17,215 nt of DNA from Octopus sinensis (taxonomy: Eukaryota), in NCBI RefSeq assembly GCF_006345805.1, contig NW_021824882.1, forward strand, positions 1 to 17,215. Direction: 5' to 3'. The notes below the pieces were generated by a model. The model saw only the letters and a program-made list of their open reading frames with translations, searched no databases and had not been told where the DNA came from. Shown here piece after piece: positions 542-17,117 of this stretch. Numbering within the stretch: the stretch's first letter is position 1; every line of letters begins with the position of its first letter. Made by a program: the position numbers and the translations under genes.

Positions 542-543
<2 letters not shown>

Positions 544-1190
544 GCAATTAAGACAACTACTTAATAAGGAAAACTTAACAAGAAATTGTCAGGTAGATAG
601 CGTGAAAACCTCATAAGAGAAAAAATTTCGAATAATTATTTCTTATTGAACATATTAATTTAGATATAGAGGGCATTATACATACATGCCAGATGCATTA
701 TACATACATGCCACACGCTAAGAGGGACAATTAGTCATTTCTACCAAAATATTACTAATCCCATCGAATGCAATTTTTCAAGTAAGACATTTAAAAAAAT
801 AGACCTGTATCACAGTGATTTCATACTTACGTATTCATCAGCAGCCTGGATGTATCATACATAAACGACCCTGCCTCGCTTAAGCCGATCAGCTAACTGA
901 TCAACATCAACGAAGCACATGGGTGAGTTTACATATATTACATCCGGTAAATGGCCGACTTTTACGAATTGCATTTCGGGAAAGGAAAAGTTTTTTCGGA
1001 ATAAAAATTTAGCAATTAAGGACAACTACTTAATAAGGAAAACTTAACAAGAAATTGTCAGGTAGATAGCGTGAAAACCTCATAAGAGAAAAAATTTCGA
1101 AAATAATTATTTCTTATTGAACATATTAATTTATATATAGAGGGCATTATACATACATGCCAGATGGCATTATACATACATGCCACACGC
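542..1190 (-). mobile_element. ~1.4 tandem copies of a ~467-bp hammerhead-containing unit (retrozyme / Penelope-like pLTR-type), ribozyme sense on minus strand
   Basis: TAGCAATTAAG(G)ACAACTACTTAATAAGG starts at 542 and again at 1010 (period 468). The second copy stops at ...TGCCACACGC (1190). The block is the reverse complement of the unit at 1209-1968. Confidence 0.85.
801..847 (-). ncRNA. Type I hammerhead ribozyme motif (unit copy, stem I lacks one C)
   Basis: Minus strand reads AGGCTG-CTGATGA-ATAC-GTAA-GTAT-GAAA-TCAC-T-GTGA-TA-CAGGTCT. Core is intact; the stem I 5' arm is one base shorter than in the plus-strand copies. Confidence 0.75.
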
Positions 1191-1307
1191 ATGTAATATA
1201 TGTAAACACGGATGTAATATATGTAAACTCACCCATGTGCTTCGTTGATGTTGATCAGTTAGCTGATCGGCTTAAGCGAGGCAGGGTCGTTTATGTATGA
1301 TACATCC

Positions 1308-1355
1308 AGGCCTGCTGATGAATACGTAAGTATGAAATCACTGTGATACAGGTCT
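1308..1355 (+). ncRNA. Type I hammerhead ribozyme
   Basis: Stem I AGGCCTG(1308-1314)/CAGGTCT(1349-1355), 7 bp with one G-U. Core CTGATGA 1315-1321. Stem II ATAC/GTAT with GTAA (GNRA) loop. GAAA 1334-1337. Stem III ATCAC-T-GTGAT. NUH triplet AUA, predicted cleavage after 1348. Confidence 0.9.
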
Positions 1356-1773
1356 ATATTTTTTAAATGTCTTACTTTGAAAAATTGCATTCGGTGGGAT
1401 TAGTAATATTTTTGGTAGAGATGACTAATTGTCCCTCTTAGCGTGTGGCATGTATGTATAATGCCATCTGGCATGTATGTATAATGCCCTCTATATATAA
1501 ATTAATATGTTCAATAAGAAATAATTATTTTCGAAATTTTTTCTCTTATGAGGTTTTCACGCTATCTACCTGACAATTTCTTGTTAAGTTTTCCTTATTA
1601 AGTAATTGCTAAATTTTTATTCCGAAAAAACTTTTCCTTTCCCGAAATGCAATTCGTAAAAGTCGGCCATTTACCGGATGTAATATATGTAAACTCACCC
1701 ATGTGCTTCGTTGATGTTGATCAGTTAGCTGATCGGCTTAAGCGAGGCAGGGTCGTTTATGTATGATACATCC

Positions 1774-1821
1774 AGGCCTGCTGATGAATACGTAAGTATG
1801 AAATCACTGTGATACAGGTCT
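1774..1821 (+). ncRNA. Type I hammerhead ribozyme (identical second copy)
   Basis: Same sequence as 1308-1355, 466 nt downstream. CTGATGA at 1781-1787; predicted cleavage after 1814. Confidence 0.9.
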
Positions 1822-2289
1822 ATATTTTTTAAATGTCTTACTTTGAAAAATTGCATTCGGTGGGATTAGTAATATTTTTGGTAGAAATGACTAATTGTCC
1901 CTCTTAGCGTGTGGCATGTATGTATAATGTCATCTGGCATGTATGTATAATGCCCTCTCTATATAAATATAATATATATAATATATATATATATAGATAT
2001 ATATCGCATATTCATACATACACACATAAATACATGTTGTGCACATGTGTCTATGTAGTGCCTTCAACGTCTTTGTTACAGCTGCCGGATAATAGTATCC
2101 GATCAGCCTCCATTCTCTCCAACTATTTTGGGGAAAGAAAAATAACCCATAACTGGCGAAGTCGTCGACATGTTTTTTCCAAAGATTAGTTTACAGACCC
2201 GGCTAAGCGTTTACTTCTATTGTTTCCGGACACAGAGCTCACAAGGCAGACATTTATATCAGTAGATTTACAAGCTAAACGTGTAATCA

Positions 2290-2958: not shown

Positions 2959-3359
2959 ACGGCGAGCTGGCAGAAACGTTAGCACGCCGGGCGAAATGCG
3001 TAGCCATATGTCGTCTGCCGTTACGTTCTGAGTTCAAATTCCGCCGAGATCGACTTTGCCTTTCATCCTTTCGGTGTCGATTAAATAAGTACCAGTTACG
3101 CACTAGGGTCGATATAATCGACTTAATCCGTTTGTCTGTCCTTGTTTGTCCTATCTGTGTTTAGCCCCTTGTCGGTAATAAAGAAATAGGTGTTTCGTCT
3201 GCCGCTGCGTTCTGAGTTCAAATTTCGCCGAGGTCGACTTTGTCTTTCATTCTTTTGGGGGTCGATAAATTAAGTACCAGATGCGTACTGGGATCGATCT
3301 AATCGACTGGCTTCTCCCGCCCCCCTCAAATTTCGGGCCTTGTACCTAAATTAGAAAAG
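2959..3359 (+). mobile_element. Composite/dimeric SINE family A with 11-bp TSD
   Basis: Full copy (GGCGAGCTGGCAGAAACGTTAGC...GAGTTCAAATTCC...AAAGAAATAGG) at 2959-3190, then a headless copy at 3191-3359. AATATGGCAAG at 2948-2958 and 3360-3370. Confidence 0.9.
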
Positions 3360-4774: not shown

Positions 4775-4984
4775 ACATTATTTACATTATTTACAATAGA
4801 CGGATATGTGTCCTCATCTTGTTTGTTGTTAACACAAAGTTTCGGCTGATTTACCCTCCAGCCTTCATCAGGTGTCTTGGGGAAATTTCGAACCTGGGTT
4901 CTCATTCCTAAGGTATTTTTCGATGTTATTATTAATTATATTGTTATCATCATCATCATCATCATCATATCATCATCATCATCA

Positions 4985-5054
<70 letters not shown>

Positions 5055-5094: not shown

Positions 5095-5386
5095 TGCTGG
5101 TCTTCATTAAACAACCTTGCCCGGAGTTGTGCCTCGGAGGGGAACTTTCTAGGTGCAATCCCATAGCCATACAGGACCGAAGGGGATCTTTGCCCTGTTA
5201 ATTAACCTATAGAAGGGACTCTGAAATGTCCCTACTTCTCTTGGTCAGAACAGGCGTGTGAAAAATAGTTGCTAAGAGGTGCTTTCACACTCCTCGGAAG
5301 CCAGGAACTCTCGAACAAGGAACAAAGAACCCTCCCCTCCACACAACCGGAAGCAGTTTAGTCGTACTCAGGATATTTACTCTAGC

Positions 5387-5781
5387 GGAGGCGCAATGGC
5401 CCAGTGGTTAGGGCAGCAGACTCGCGGTCATAGGATCGCGGTTTCGATTCCCAGACCGGGCGTTGTGAGTGTTTATTGAGCGAAAACACCTAAAACCTCC
5501 ACGAGGCTCCGGCAGGGGATGGTGGTGATCCCTGCTGTACTCTTTCACCACAACTTTCTCTCACTCTTCCTGTTTCTGTTGTACCTGCATTTCAAAGGGC
5601 TGGCCTTGTCACTCTCTGTGTCACGCTGAATATTCCCGAGAACTACGTTAAGGGTGCACGTGTCTGTGGAGTGCTCAGCCACTTACACGTTAATTTCACG
5701 AGCAGGCTGTTCCGTTGATTCGGATCAACCGGAACCCTCATCGTCGTAACCGACGGAGAGCTTCTAAAAAAAAAAAAAAAA
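5387..5781 (+). mobile_element. Full-length young tRNA-derived SINE (family C head, tail type 2) with poly(A) and 12-bp TSD
   Basis: A box TGGCCCAGTGG, B box GTTTCGATTCC, pure A run 5766-5782, perfect ATTTACTCTAGC at 5375-5386 and 5782-5793. Confidence 0.95.
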
Positions 5782-6017: not shown

Positions 6018-6425
6018 GCAGTAAGCTTGCAGAATCGTTAGCACGCCGGGCAAAAATGGTTAGTGGCATTTCGTTTGTCTTTACGTTCGAATTCCAGCAG
6101 GGACGACTTTGTCTTTCATTCTTTCAGGGTCGATAAAATAAGTACTAGTTGAGTGGTAGTGGGGCGACAAGCTGGCAGAAACGTTAGCACGCCGGGCGAA
6201 ATGCGTAGCTGTATTTCGTCTGCCGTTACGTTCTGAGTTCAAATTCCGCCGAGGTTGACTTTGCCTTTCATCCTTTCGGGGTCGATAAATTAAGTACCAG
6301 TTACACACTGGGGTCGATATAATCGACTTAATCCGTTTGTCTGTCCTTGTTTGTCGTATCTGTGTTTAGCCCCTTGTGGGTGGTAAAGAAATAGGTAGTG
6401 GGGTGTCGATGTAATCGACTTATCT
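6018..6425 (+). mobile_element. Old SINE family A copy with a younger family A copy (6163-6395) nested in it
   Basis: Host head/body at 6018-6160 resumes as GTCGATGTAATCGACTT after 6403. GGTAGTGGGG duplicated at 6155-6164 and 6394-6403. Confidence 0.9.
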
Positions 6426-6526
6426 TATACTTTTGATTTTGCGCATGCGCACTGTTTCTTTTTGATTTTGACGACTACACAGCGTGGTAGAGTCCGTTGG
6501 GCACCGTCTGTGAGACAAAGAGCAGC

Positions 6527-7140
6527 ATGGCACAGTTTACACTGCCAGAAATTTGGAAACGACATGCTGTACTGCTTGGCATTCGCACTAAAAGCTCCAA
6601 TACGAAAATTTCAGAGTGTTTGGGTGTCAATCTGACGACAGTGCAATCAGAGGACATGTACCAAGAGTGATACAAATCAAATATCCAGTCAACATCACTA
6701 GTGATGGCAACGTTATGCCTCCATTCATCTTCCCACAGACTGAACAAGGTGACCTACATCAAGTGCTTGGAGAAAATTGTGCTGCCCTGGGTCAAGGGAG
6801 TGACTGCTGAAAGAATCTAAGTCTAGCAACAGGACTCTGCAGTATGCCACACATGCAGGAGAACCCAGTCATGGCTGTCAGACAATTTCTGCAACAACAT
6901 CACCTCACCCCTAACATCTAGCAACCTAACTCCCCAGGCTGCAACCCCCTTATTATTATGTGTGAGGCGCAGTTCAGCGAGAGACCAACAAAACTTCTTC
7001 TTACACCAAAGATGAAGTGAAGGCAAGGATTATGGCAGAATTCACCAACTTAAGCAAAGAGACTGTCCAGAAGAGTTGCATGGGATTCTCAAGTCCTCTG
7101 GAGGCCGTGGTTGAAGCCAATAGCGATTTTATTGAAGAAA
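6527..7140 (+). pseudogene. Decayed, internally deleted Tc1/mariner transposase, DD37D (maT) type; element remnant extends ~6435-7262
   Basis: Manual translation: MAQFTLPEIWKRHAVLLGIRTKSSNTKISECLGVNLTTVQ...YIKCLEKIVLPWVK...V*QQDSAVCHTCRRTQSWLSDNF...PNI*QPNSPGCNPL(D)YYV*GAV...LEAVVEANSDFIE. Matches the QQDxAPxH and WPPxSPDxNPLD motifs, with 37 residues between the last two Asp positions after frameshift repair. Multiple stops and frameshifts. Confidence 0.9.
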
Positions 7141-7337
7141 TTTACTCTTTAGTATTTCAAGATATTTTTATGCAATTTTAGTAAATATATCTGTTAAAAT
7201 GAGACGCCAGCGTTATTTTCATTTTCCGTAGTTTAAACGGCAGTTTATTCAACGCAACCTGCGTGTATATATGTATGTATATAAATATATGTATATATAA
7301 TTATATATATATATATAATATATATATAATATATATA

Positions 7338-8099: not shown

Positions 8100-8417
8100 A
8101 GAAACAACATCAACAACAATGATGAGAACGGCGGCGGCGACGGTGATGGTACCAACAACTACAAGAAGAACAACGACAGCAGCGGAAGCACTAATAGCAA
8201 CAAGGACAGTGTAGAGGGCGGTAGAAACAGCAAAGTTAGCAACAAGAACAAGAACAACATCAACAAGAACAATAACAACAACAACAACAAGAGCAACAAC
8301 AATCACAATAACAGCAGCAGCAGCAACAACAACAACGACAGCTTCAACAATAACAACAACAACAACAACAATCACAATAACAGCAGCAGCAACAACAACA
8401 ACAACAACAATGACAGC
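8100..8417. repeat. Degenerate (CAA/CAG)n trinucleotide repeat
   Basis: Read directly; gives the poly-V and poly-T ORFs. Confidence 0.95.
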
Positions 8418-8785
8418 GGAGGCGCAATGGCCCAATGGTTAGGGCAGCGGACTGGCAGTCGGAGGATCGCGGTTTCGATTCCCAGACCGGGCGTTGTGTG
8501 TGTTTATTGAGCGAAAAACACCTAAAGCTCCACGAGGCTCCGGCAGGGAGTGGTGGCGACTCCTGTTGTACACTTTCGCTCCAACTTTCTCTCACTCTTT
8601 CTTCCTGTTTCTTGTCCCCGACTTCCTACGCAACCGCTGAGCCTGGATGCGAATTCATCCATCCGTTGATGCTCTCGGTGTCAGGGGTTGACCTGATTTC
8701 TCTTCTGCGGGTCTTACGAAGAGCAAAGGACCACGGTTCGGTCTTCTCCCATCTTGCGAGCTCTGGGACGAAGACCGTTCGCTCA
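8418..8785 (+). mobile_element. tRNA-derived SINE, family C head with tail type 3, followed by (CAA/CAG)n
   Basis: Head/body nearly the same as the 5387 copy up to ...TTCCTGTTTCT (~8612), then an unrelated 3' sequence. Confidence 0.9.
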
Positions 8786-8859
8786 ACAGCAACAGCAGCA
8801 ACAACAGTGGCAGCAGTATCAAAAACAACAGCAATAATAACAACAACAACAACGACAGT

Positions 8860-9318
8860 GGAGGCGCAATGGCCCAGTGGTTAGAGCAGCGGACTCGCGG
8901 TCGTAAGAACGCGGTTTCGATTCCCAGACCGGACATTTTGAGTGTTTATTGAGCAAAAACACCTAAGCTCCACGAGGCTCCAGCGGGGTGGGATGGGGTG
9001 AACCCCGCTGTACTCTTTCTTCCTACTTCTGCCAGTAAGCAGAGGGACCATGGTGTAACCCATTATAGTGAGGTAAACTTTCAGACCCTAGTCTAGATTG
9101 CGAATCCTCTGTACCCCAGGATGGTTCAGCTCTCCACCCGTTAAGAAAAAGCCACCGTTTACGGAATGAGGATAACAACGTAGCTTTCACGCCCGTGCAA
9201 CCGCCAGTCTATCGCGTGTGGTGGGTGGATCTTAAAGTTGCCACACGCATTCTTAGTAGCTTAGAGTAGGCTCGAATTAGAGATTATTCTTTGTGGCTAA
9301 TGGCGTGGGTCCTGATTG
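8860..9318 (+). mobile_element. tRNA-derived SINE, family C head with tail type 4, followed by (GAA/GAT)n to ~9420
   Basis: Same head/body to ~9025, then ~290 bp of different sequence ending at a trinucleotide tail. The 3' boundary is inferred. Confidence 0.75.
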
Positions 9319-9793: not shown

Positions 9794-9876
9794 CGCACCG
9801 CCGCCCGTACACCGCACCGCCGCCCGTACACCGAACCGCCGCCCGTACACCGCACCGCCGCCCATACACCGCACCG
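9794..9876. repeat. GC-rich 19-bp minisatellite CGCACCGCCGCCCGTACAC x ~4.4
   Basis: Units start at 9794, 9813, 9832, 9851 and (partial) 9870, with two single substitutions. No spacers, so not a CRISPR array. Confidence 0.95.
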
Positions 9877-10202: not shown

Positions 10203-10851
10203 AGGTGGTGAGCTGGCAGAACCGTTAGCTCGCAGGGCGAAATGCTTAGGGGTATTTCGTCTGTCTTTACGTTCTGAGTTCAAATTCCGCCGAAGTTGAC
10301 TTTGCCTTTCATCCTTTCGGGGTCGATAAATTAAGTACCACTTGCGTACTGGGGTCGATCTAATCGATTAGTCCCCTCCACCAAAATTTCGGGCCTTGTG
10401 CCTAGAGTAGAAAAGAATATAAAGACGGCGAGCCGGTAGGAACGTTAGCACGCCGGGCGAAATGTTTAGCACTATTTCGTCTGCCGTTACGTTCTAAGTT
10501 CAAATTCCGCCGAGGTCGACTTTGCCTTTCATCCTTTCGAGGTCGATAAATTAAGTACCATTTACGCACTGGGGTCGATGTAATCGACTTAATCCCCTTG
10601 TCTGTCCTTGTTTGTCCTCTCTATGTTTAGCCCCTCGTGCGCAATAAAGAAAGTATAAACGTTAGCATGTCGGGCGAAATGCTTAGCGACATTTCATCCG
10701 TCTTTACGTTCATGGTTCAAATTCCGCCAAGTCGACTTTGCCTTTCATCATTTCGGGGTCGATAAATTAAGTACCACTTGCGTACTGGGGTCGATCTAAT
10801 CTATTGGTCTCCTCATCAAAAATCTCGGGCCTTGTGCCTAGAGTAGAAAAG
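10203..10851 (+). mobile_element. Head-to-tail trimer of SINE family A inside one 17-bp TSD
   Basis: Copies at ~10203-10418, ~10423-10655 and ~10658-10851 (5'-truncated). AATATAATCTTAGAATA at 10186-10202 and 10852-10868. Confidence 0.92.
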
Positions 10852-11631
10852 AATATAATCTTAGAATATATTTAAATACAAACCGGTTTATGAATTTGAA
10901 TCAATGGAGCAATACGATCATGTGAACAAAAGGATTCGGAAAAATAAAGCAATTTTTATCTGAGACAGACCGACATCTTTGATTATATATTTGCGCCTGT
11001 CTAGATGTCGAAACCAGCAGTTTCACTAAAATATACACCAATTTTACTAGTCAATATTACTAATCTACACTAATATCACATCAAACGTCCTTTAGATCTT
11101 TAAGCATGGCTAGCGATCACTCTTCTGAGCGAATTTTGTGTCACAATGGGCAACTTTGATGAAGCCTTATTGTTTGCTTCAGAAAGCATATTACTTTTCT
11201 AAGAAATGTAGAGCTATTGAAATGGTTTATAATTTTGATCAGGTTGTATCGCTGAACAGCTGAAATTTCCGGGAGATGAATAATTTACACAGTCAAGAAA
11301 TTCATTTGTTTGTGACGGTCGAAGAAGAAATTACAGCGGTGAGGTTAAGTTTAAGCTCGTCTTCAAATTGTATGAGTTTTACTGCACAAAATAAATTTAC
11401 AACATTCTTTTGTACATCGATACCCATCCAACAACCAACCCAACGTCATCAAACATGTGCCAATAAGCGTCAGCAAGAGGACAAGTATATTTAGTTTGTA
11501 ACGAAACCATCTTCAGTATCTTGTAGAGTATTGGATAACACCACAACACTTTCAGAGTATATTTTGAAATCGAGAGACAAATAAGAGACCCCTAACGTGT
11601 CTCATTAGAAGTACTAGATAAGGTACAGATA

Positions 11632-12135
11632 CCGTAAACCCTCCAGTATAGTCCGCCCTTGAGTATAATACGCAGGGGATTTTTAGGGGGCTGTACCTCT
11701 GAAAAACTTAAACCTTGTGTATATTATGCACCCCTTCTCTAACTTAAGTCAAAGAGGTCTATATAACGCCTTGGTTTGTAAAAATGTATACAGTAACGTC
11801 CTTTAATATATTGTACATATAACATAATGCAAACGTGTAGCTTTTTTGTGCATTTTGTTTGCAGAAAATAAAGAAATAACAGTAATAGGTTTAATAAATG
11901 TTGCTTACTGCAAGTTATGGATGTTCTTTATGACTTCATTGCTTTCAGGTTAGCTTAAGGTATTTTAACGCCCGACATCACAAAATGCGTCTGAATAACA
12001 TTGCTGGACAGCAAATAGAGACTCGGACATTGCTTTGAAAATATTTTCATTTTTAACCTCGTGTATAATACGCGCTAGGGATTTTGACCTTTAAATTTTT
12101 GGGGAAAAATGCGGATTATACTCGAGGATTTACGG
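11632..12135. mobile_element. 504-bp non-autonomous Tc1/mariner-superfamily (pogo/Tc2-like) MITE
   Basis: TIRs CCGTAAACCCTCCAGTATAGTCCGC (11632-11656) vs reverse complement of 12111-12135 match 22/25. TA on both sides (11630-11631, 12136-12137). Internal GTATAATACGC repeats. Confidence 0.9.
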
Positions 12136-12595
12136 TATTTAAGAATATAGGAATGTCCTACAATCTCTGTCTTTCGGAGAAACTTTACATCATCATGTTT
12201 TACACTCTGACTTAAATAAATTAATTCCAACTTCCGAGCATAAGCCTAACTATCTCCCAGTGAATTTCAAAAGGGACTTTTATACCTGAGATAATGTAGA
12301 AACTATCGGTGATTTACGGTGTTTACCGGTGATTTACGGCGTTAACTCCACGCAGAATTATCGAACTGTTCCCTAAACCAAAAACGGTATTGCTCAGTTA
12401 GCCGAAAGAATAAAACCGCCGCTTGGAAATATAATTAGAAATATAATTTGCGATGTCGAATAGTGGGTAACACTAATTTTACAAAATTGATGTAATACAT
12501 ACATGCATACGTATGTATCTAGGTATGAGTGTATTTGGATTTATATATACATGTATGACGCATATAATGTATATGCATATAGATGTAAAGTATCA

Positions 12596-13091: not shown

Positions 13092-13402
<311 letters not shown>

Positions 13403-15972: not shown

Positions 15973-16158
15973 TAAAGTTAATCCAACAAGAAAACACAGA
16001 AAAAAGAAAAAAAAACACAGCAACGCAGGACGTGGAACAATTAAAGTATTATTGACACTCAGGAAAGAAGGGAGGAGGGTTTAACGTTTCGAGCGGAGCT
16101 CTTCGTCGAAAAAAAGGGAAGGAAAGATCCCAAGAAGGGAAGACAGAGGAAAAAATAT
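15973..16158 (-). mobile_element. Second, inverted copy of the ~190-bp hammerhead element; core mutated
   Basis: Reverse complement matches 13100-13290. The HHR at 16079-16111 reads TCGACGA-A-GAGCTCCGCTC-GAAACGTT-AAAC instead of CTGACGA. Its 3' end abuts (TA)n at 15900-15972. Confidence 0.8.
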
Positions 16159-17077: not shown

Positions 17078-17117
17078 TTACTGACAGTTTCGTCCCTGAA
17101 AACACTCGTCAGACGAA
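17078..17117 (-). ncRNA. Degenerate hammerhead core
   Basis: Minus strand CTGACGA-GTGTTTTCAGGGAC-GAAA-C-T-G-TC. Perfect core, G-C closing pair and GUC triplet, but stems I and II pair poorly. Confidence 0.4.

Follow-up and report, generated by a model that had tools for sequence, protein, structure and literature searches.

How does a short non-coding unit come to lie at one locus in copies that point both ways, in non-integer numbers and between two tracts of (TA)n? The question is raised by positions 542–1968 of a 17,215-nt stretch of octopus DNA (here called the window), which is non-coding animal DNA with many microsatellites and dispersed repeats. A first, sequence-only reading had described about 1.4 units running leftward (542–1190) and about 1.6 running rightward (1209–1968), and the arms as measured here, of 1.37 and 1.63 units, agree with that description.

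Geometry of the arms and their (TA)n target

The unit, numbered so that u1 corresponds to position 1209, is a non-coding sequence of 476 nt that is reduced to 466 nt in the right arm. This right arm (1209–1968, plus strand, 760 nt) consists of u1–466 followed by u1–294, with 1209–1502 and 1675–1968 forming a tandem repeat of 294 nt, 99% identical at a spacing of 466. The left arm (542–1190, minus strand, 649 nt) runs from 1190 to 542 and consists of u233–466 followed by u1–403, its alignment extending to 546 and the final bases having been taken directly from the sequence. Segment 657–1190 is the reverse complement of 1441–1968 over 539 columns with a mean column identity of 98%, the differences amounting to one 10-nt gap, five 1-nt gaps and three substitutions, and BLAST returns the same inverted repeat as a match of 553 nt at 96% (E = 0). 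Alignment thus confirms the inverted repeat previously placed at about 658–1190 and 1441–1968, with coordinates accurate to 1–2 bases. No further copy of the unit lies within the 17,215 nt of the window, motifs from the unit had no exact match in the prokaryotic genomes scanned, and a phage collection gave one chance-level match of 52 nt, in TA-rich sequence.

Both arms end in simple sequence. To the left, a (TA)n tract at 484–541 forms the end of a longer TA/TCTA microsatellite region (305–543), and to the right a second tract occupies 1969–2004; TRF arrays at 305–543 and 1960–2004 bracket the two arms, in keeping with the earlier remark that both outer ends run into (TA)n. In both arms it is the 3' end of the unit that lies outermost and enters (TA)n, and the 5' ends meet in a head-to-head arrangement, an orientation that supports priming from both strands of the target. 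At the left 3' end the joint to (TA)n is formed by a 2-nt TA microhomology (542–543), and the right 3' end (1958–1968, plus strand), whose exact position is uncertain by about 15 nt, falls within u284–300, where the unit has both its longest TA run and its longest stretch of A and T alone. The two 3' ends differ, at u294 on the right and u403 on the left, and are about 110–120 nt apart, and a gap of 63 nt (u404–466) separates the left 3' end from the right 5' start. At most 6 nt of pure TA are shared at the flanks, so that no target-site duplication (TSD) can be called; TSDs are described as often indiscernible in microsatellite targets (PMC8557442).

Two side observations concern these ends. 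The arm lengths total 3.0 units within about 1 nt, a 63-nt gap at one end facing a 62-nt overlap at the other, which could be chance (roughly 1 in 25, given the uncertainty of the ends). The tracts at 484–541 and 1969–2004 both have AA rather than TT interruptions on the plus strand, and other TA tracts in the window mix AA and TT interruptions; AA in both is expected if the two were one tract before insertion, a weak indication.

The combined inverted and tandem structure, a retrozyme-type unit in the insertion layout of Penelope-like elements (PLEs), is very probably real. Beyond the mirror point, the left arm has about 115 nt more of the unit (u295–403), and the flanks are not mirrored, the best flank-to-flank match reaching only E = 0.24; together with a junction built of templated microhomologies these features make a plain fold-back artefact unlikely, and a simple mirror artefact was rejected because fold-back of one molecule would extend the mirror into the flank. 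Some concern attaches to the outer left arm (542–844, minus strand), which has seven small deletions (six from the alignment and one further C read from the sequence) against none in 845–1190, a distribution with a probability of 0.005 if they were evenly spread, the boundary having been chosen post hoc. Six of the seven shorten a homopolymer run, as had been noticed for the left copy beforehand, and they are probable consensus errors. An assembly or library chimera, made by joining two copies or by folding of one molecule, would fit the confinement of these error-like deletions to 542–844 and the location of the locus close to the window start, amid microsatellites, and structures of this type are known to trouble assemblies (PMC8557442). 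Such a chimera is nevertheless quite improbable: beyond the overrun of the mirror point and the unmirrored flanks, the left arm has a segment that is absent from the right arm, the joined ends have only 2 nt in common, too little for an overlap misjoin, and the error pattern is absent from the sequence near the junction.

The hammerhead unit and its predicted RNAs

Each arm carries predicted type I hammerhead ribozymes. In the right arm two lie in tandem, 466 nt apart: an inner copy (1308–1355, plus strand, core at 1315) with a predicted cut at 1348/1349, and an outer copy (1774–1821, plus strand, core at 1781) with a predicted cut at 1814/1815. The left arm has one (801–847, minus strand, core 841–819), predicted to be cut between 808 and 807, in which one C is missing from stem I, at a place that falls among the probable consensus errors. 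The layout is a 7-bp helix I, CUGAUGA, a 4-bp helix II, GAAA, a palindromic helix III and cleavage after AUA, with stem I of 7, 7 and 3 bp in the three copies and stem II of 4 bp. A strict descriptor (stem I of at least 6 bp, stem II of at least 4 bp) found nothing in 20,000 shuffles of the unit, and a loose descriptor found three. Rfam returned no hammerhead family among 27 weak matches for the whole window and four for 1700–1900, a miss that we take as a limit of the models, since the descriptor does find the motif. As to activity, the core by itself has no exceptional stability (z −1.3), 2.4 kcal/mol separate its active fold from the more stable minimum (−9.7 vs −12.1), and the A10.1–U11.1 pair and the AUA triplet were counted against activity; for comparison, cleavage in vitro is reported for only one of nine predicted Xenopus retrozyme dimers (10.64898/2026.07.22.740005).

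Double self-cleavage at the predicted sites of the right arm would release a monomer of 466 nt (1349–1814, plus strand). This monomer is strongly folded (z = −8.2 as a linear molecule, with none of 100 shuffles as stable), and as a circle it reaches z −8.0 in the sense orientation vs −4.8 in antisense. The 15 control windows had a median z of −0.5 and a minimum of −7.1, three of them falling below −6, all three containing (TA)n; the GC content of the unit is 0.34. Directly 5' of the hammerhead lies a 98-nt stem-loop (1210–1307, plus strand, u2–u99) with helix pair probabilities of 0.98–1.0, and the right arm's 5' end coincides with the foot of this structure. A second hairpin is formed by a 23-nt internal duplication (1446–1492, plus strand, u239–280), which is found in all four copies covering u239–280.

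It had been suggested that a transcript from either strand would carry a hammerhead and fold into long dsRNA. Sense cores are indeed found on both strands and a long duplex is predicted, but this duplex buries two of the three hammerheads. In the predicted plus-strand fold, 250 nt remain as a loop that closes the duplex. Only the hammerhead at 1315 falls in this loop, where its helices I and II are formed; pairing in the duplex takes up the one at 1781 and likewise the partner of the minus-strand hammerhead. Such a duplex might in principle be edited or give rise to small RNAs, a role in RNA editing being speculation.

Other identities for the element were considered. A coding role was rejected, since the longest stop-free frame in the element is of 64 aa and a Pfam search of 16 frames (12 from the element and four from 6.4–7.2 kb) gave two matches only, both below the cut-off; a 54-aa frame compared with longer proteins, a weak test, matched none of seven candidates, and no RT or GIY-YIG endonuclease gene was found within the window. 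A tRNA-derived SINE was likewise rejected, in view of the absence of a tRNA head, an A box and a full B box (judged by consensus patterns). Finally, the inverted repeat was not read as a MITE, the arms being permuted tandem units and not terminal repeats round a core.

Further hammerhead motifs occur in the window. A minimal PLE-type hammerhead is part of another short repeat, unrelated to the unit, that is present at 13103–13290 (plus strand), with an intact core at 13152, and again at 16156–15972 (minus strand), about 82% identical and with one core base missing; each of these two copies has its 3' end in (TA)n, and they converge at a distance of 2.5 kb. A minimal hammerhead at 4871–4830 (minus strand; stem I of 5 bp, stem II of 6 bp, and an extra A) adjoins a (TTA)n/(ATC)n tract at 4926–5052, and the descriptor found no site in 100 block-shuffled windows; it is probably a third PLE-derived fragment. 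At 17112–17088 (minus strand) there are hammerhead-like core words that lack a good stem II and failed the descriptor. Among the other repeats are a MITE-like element of 510 nt with 28-bp terminal inverted repeats (11629–12138, 89%), a first SINE-like family (2960–3191, 6165–6396 and 10206–10858) that also occurs as a 220-nt tandem of 2.9 copies, a second one (5384–5571, 8415–8602 and 8857–9044) that twice follows (AAC)n tracts, and a GC-rich minisatellite (9794–9876) of 4.4 copies of a 19-nt unit. The head of the second SINE-like family looks tRNA-like by eye and ARAGORN calls no tRNA there. A frame through the repeat at 2853–3161 matches a hypothetical Octopus vulgaris protein, the one candidate compared, at 82% identity (E = 4e-28), a single hit that makes an Octopus host probable. 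Broken frames at about 6420–7250, which by eye resemble a remnant of a Tc1/mariner transposase, gave no Pfam match in the four frames searched.

Junction, copy divergence and origin of the insertion

The inversion junction (1177–1228, plus strand) contains a 21-nt duplication (1185–1228) that spans the inversion point. Bases 1191–1208 are part of this duplication, 1191–1207 repeating u4–u20; 1206–1210 repeat the left arm's last bases, and a CG microhomology (1209–1210) is common to both arms. The junction is made up of templated pieces linked by microhomologies of 2–5 nt, and can be read as repeated template switching on these or as a CG join followed by a slippage duplication with one substitution. 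Under either reading it was made by a polymerase, and a library polymerase is also possible. A 7-bp hairpin with a 5-nt loop (1177–1183/1189–1195) straddles the first join, and a hairpin this long or longer appeared in 0.6% of 63,492 simulated joins, a feature noticed post hoc.

This hairpin is one of several points that favour the main rival history, with a single priming event, in which the cDNA end would have turned at u233 to its own strand as template and copied it back, the right arm later losing u295–403 and 10 nt. Both arms would first have ended near u403, the loss of u295–403 occurring by slippage between the internal TA run and the flanking (TA)n, and the present right end does coincide with the longest TA run of the unit, the place at which this slippage would leave it. 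Over 845–1190 no substitution separates the inner left arm from the right arm, and self-priming has been proposed for the inverted repeats (pLTRs) of PLEs (PMC3846280). However, the rival needs two later deletions in the right arm, and although palindromic junctions are the basis of the model in PMC3846280, no perfect palindrome over 6 nt is found at this junction. The mirror arms are also separated by 250 nt, and the right flank does not recur in inverted form on the left. Single priming with fold-back is accordingly rather unlikely, and it would still count as a PLE-type event.

The differences between copies bear on the number of sources. In the four copies of u233–294 every difference is private to one copy, the two right copies differ at three of 294 sites, and u186 is G in both right copies and A in the left. 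A single source, from which each copy later diverged by about 0.5%, is compatible with these data, and two templates are not required; the private differences and the near identity of the right copies indicate an insertion that is young and from a single source. The 10-nt segment (1019–1028, minus strand) is present in both left copies and absent from the right arm, as the sequence-only reading had it, but it does not serve as proof that the arms differ in template. Its position is covered by only one right copy, lies between TA microhomologies, and the segment completes the 7-bp closing helix of a hairpin in the predicted fold, so that the unit probably had 476 nt originally and a single right-arm copy would have lost the 10 nt, which makes the indel weak evidence for two templates. 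The left arm's overrun of the mirror point is the better argument against a mirror copy. With substitutions this rare, a loss of 10 nt tips the balance slightly from one circle towards a heterogeneous template, and indel variants are described as coexisting in coral retrozymes (PMC7229834).

The indel and u186 could also be explained by two independent insertions in opposite directions into the same (TA)n tract, in a family that targets such tracts. Since the arms are equally young, have no (TA)n remnant between them and meet in a junction that combines pieces from both ends, this coincidence is very improbable. A different route, without an RNA step, is capture at the DNA level, whereby a break in the fragile (TA)n would be repaired by template switching or end joining from a genomic tandem array. 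Here the templated junction with its microhomologies and the lack of a callable TSD would be accommodated, and arms of more than one unit would need no circle if the donor were an array. Yet the 3' ends are the outer ones, as they must be after priming, PLEs show this layout as a rule (PMC8557442, PMC3846280), and a second hammerhead family in the window likewise meets (TA)n with its 3' ends; DNA capture is therefore distinctly unlikely.

The locus is probably best read as a single young insertion of a non-autonomous hammerhead retroelement of about 476 nt (a non-LTR retrozyme) by a Penelope-like RT-endonuclease. The enzyme would nick both strands of the (TA)n tract, and each nicked 3' end would prime reverse transcription of sense RNA, one at the TA-rich run u284–300 and the other at u403 with 2 nt of homology. 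Both cDNAs would cross predicted ribozyme cut sites, two on the right and one on the left, and their ends would be joined head-to-head via short microhomologies and template switching. The geometry, the motif, the ends and the junction are features of the locus itself, and the PLE layout, the AT-rich targets and the nicking and extension of both strands come from the literature; from these we infer the identity of the enzyme, the RNA intermediate and the double priming. A PLE protein in purified form acts on AT-rich DNA by cleaving both strands and extending them, with RNA that need not be cleaved, and it initiated at sites non-homologous to the target, unlike the right end here (PMC11167929). 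Counting against this mechanism are the offset of the 3' ends by about 110–120 nt, where a PLE tail has 30–40 nt, the 63-nt gap, which exceeds the L1 median of 14.5 nt, and the absence of a helper RT/endonuclease gene from the window.

As to the template, no arm end coincides with the predicted cut site u140/141 and three such sites are crossed, which excludes a cleaved linear monomer unless the enzyme jumped between templates. Because both cDNAs would have run through predicted ribozyme cut sites, the template would have been a circle or an uncleaved multimer, and a circle and an uncleaved RNA of at least 3.1 units both fit the locus. The circular or multimeric template proposed earlier stands to the extent that arms of more than one unit crossing cut sites need a circular, uncleaved multimeric or template-jumping source; a choice between circle and multimer goes beyond what the locus can separate. 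Each 5' end is found at the foot of a strong hairpin or just past it (u2–99 and u239–280), a pattern noticed post hoc which suggests that synthesis may have been ended by snap-back of the cDNA there. It is a tentative possibility that a dimeric PLE enzyme used both strands of a single (TA)n site to copy a retrozyme circle, with each RT completing more than one lap and stopping just past a strong hairpin. If this were true, the locus would provide direct genomic evidence for the still hypothetical mobilisation of circles by PLE enzymes, inverted PLE termini would be products of twin priming, and the plus-strand transcript would form a hairpin of roughly 530 bp whose loop is opened by its own free hammerhead. 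Circle-based mobilisation of retrozymes has itself been published as a hypothesis (PMC7229834, PMC4209133).

Comparison with known systems

In common with metazoan non-LTR retrozymes (PMC7229834, PMC7761336, 10.64898/2026.07.22.740005), the element is an ORF-free tandem unit with one type I hammerhead per unit, a GC content of 34%, a monomer predicted to be strongly self-paired and two tandem hammerheads that could release it. Its motif fits the canonical metazoan form, with helix I of 6 bp, helix II of 4 bp and a palindromic helix III (PMC4209133). The unit length of 476 nt is above the 170–400 nt given for the retrozymes of PMC7229834 and inside the 51–972 nt of a 2026 preprint that derives non-LTR retrozymes from PLE pLTRs (10.64898/2026.07.22.740005). 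In Schistosoma, hammerhead pairs are described 100–700 bp apart on opposite strands (PMC4209133); the corresponding distance is about 475 bp here.

Retrozyme-type units and PLE-type insertion layouts are each already known. Their combination, or its occurrence in octopus, was not found in the main texts searched, nor do those texts describe an inverted head-to-head retrozyme insertion, and no description of an octopus retrozyme was found in the open-access literature. The origin of the tandem and inverted ends of PLEs, and the circle-based movement of retrozymes via PLE enzymes, are posed as open questions in PMC8557442 and PMC7229834. One locus settles neither; what it does show is the PLE layout in a retrozyme insertion short enough to be resolved completely, and end positions gathered family-wide could therefore test double priming against fold-back, and a circle against a multimer.

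L1 twin priming (10.1101/2024.08.27.596794, PMC11702581) offers a second comparison. As in that process, two primers from opposite target strands would have been used, one end has a long homology and the other a short one, the junction has microhomology, and a gap separates the pieces. Unlike it, the element has no poly(A) and no callable TSD, and its gap is 63 nt vs a median of 14.5 nt. The extensive overlap of the arms, also unlike L1, is explained by a repetitive template.

In layout the element resembles endonuclease-bearing (EN+) PLEs. Partial tandem and inverted repeats had been called a Penelope-like hallmark, and the texts of PMC8557442 and PMC3846280 do describe this layout, with partial tandems often accompanied by an inverted 5'-truncated copy, a (TA)n bias in Naiad and Neptune (PMC8557442), and head-to-head as the commonest inverted arrangement (PMC3846280); the parts consulted of PMC9977147 and PMC8969392 held nothing beyond it. 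The element differs from EN+ PLEs in lacking an RT/GIY-YIG ORF, in an inverted partner that itself exceeds one unit, and, at this one locus, in 3' ends about 110–120 nt apart where PLEs have an optional tail of 30–40 nt. Its hammerhead lacks the extra base that precedes helix II in the minimal PLE form (PMC4209133), and three short unit motifs were not found in the supplement of PMC8557442, where line-wrapped sequences could hide a match. As in EN+ PLEs with inverted pLTRs, and especially the (TA)n-targeting Neptune and Naiad (PMC8557442, PMC3846280), the locus has a partial tandem with an adjacent head-to-head, inverted and 5'-truncated copy, a (TA)n target, no discernible TSD and a hammerhead within the repeat. 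Also in favour of a PLE-type enzyme are the 31 recently active PLE families reported for Octopus vulgaris (PMC13282606) and the further minimal hammerheads of PLE type that adjoin microsatellites in the window, and since Naiads are described as being without canonical hammerheads and as remnants in cephalopods (PMC8557442), a Neptune-type helper is the better guess.
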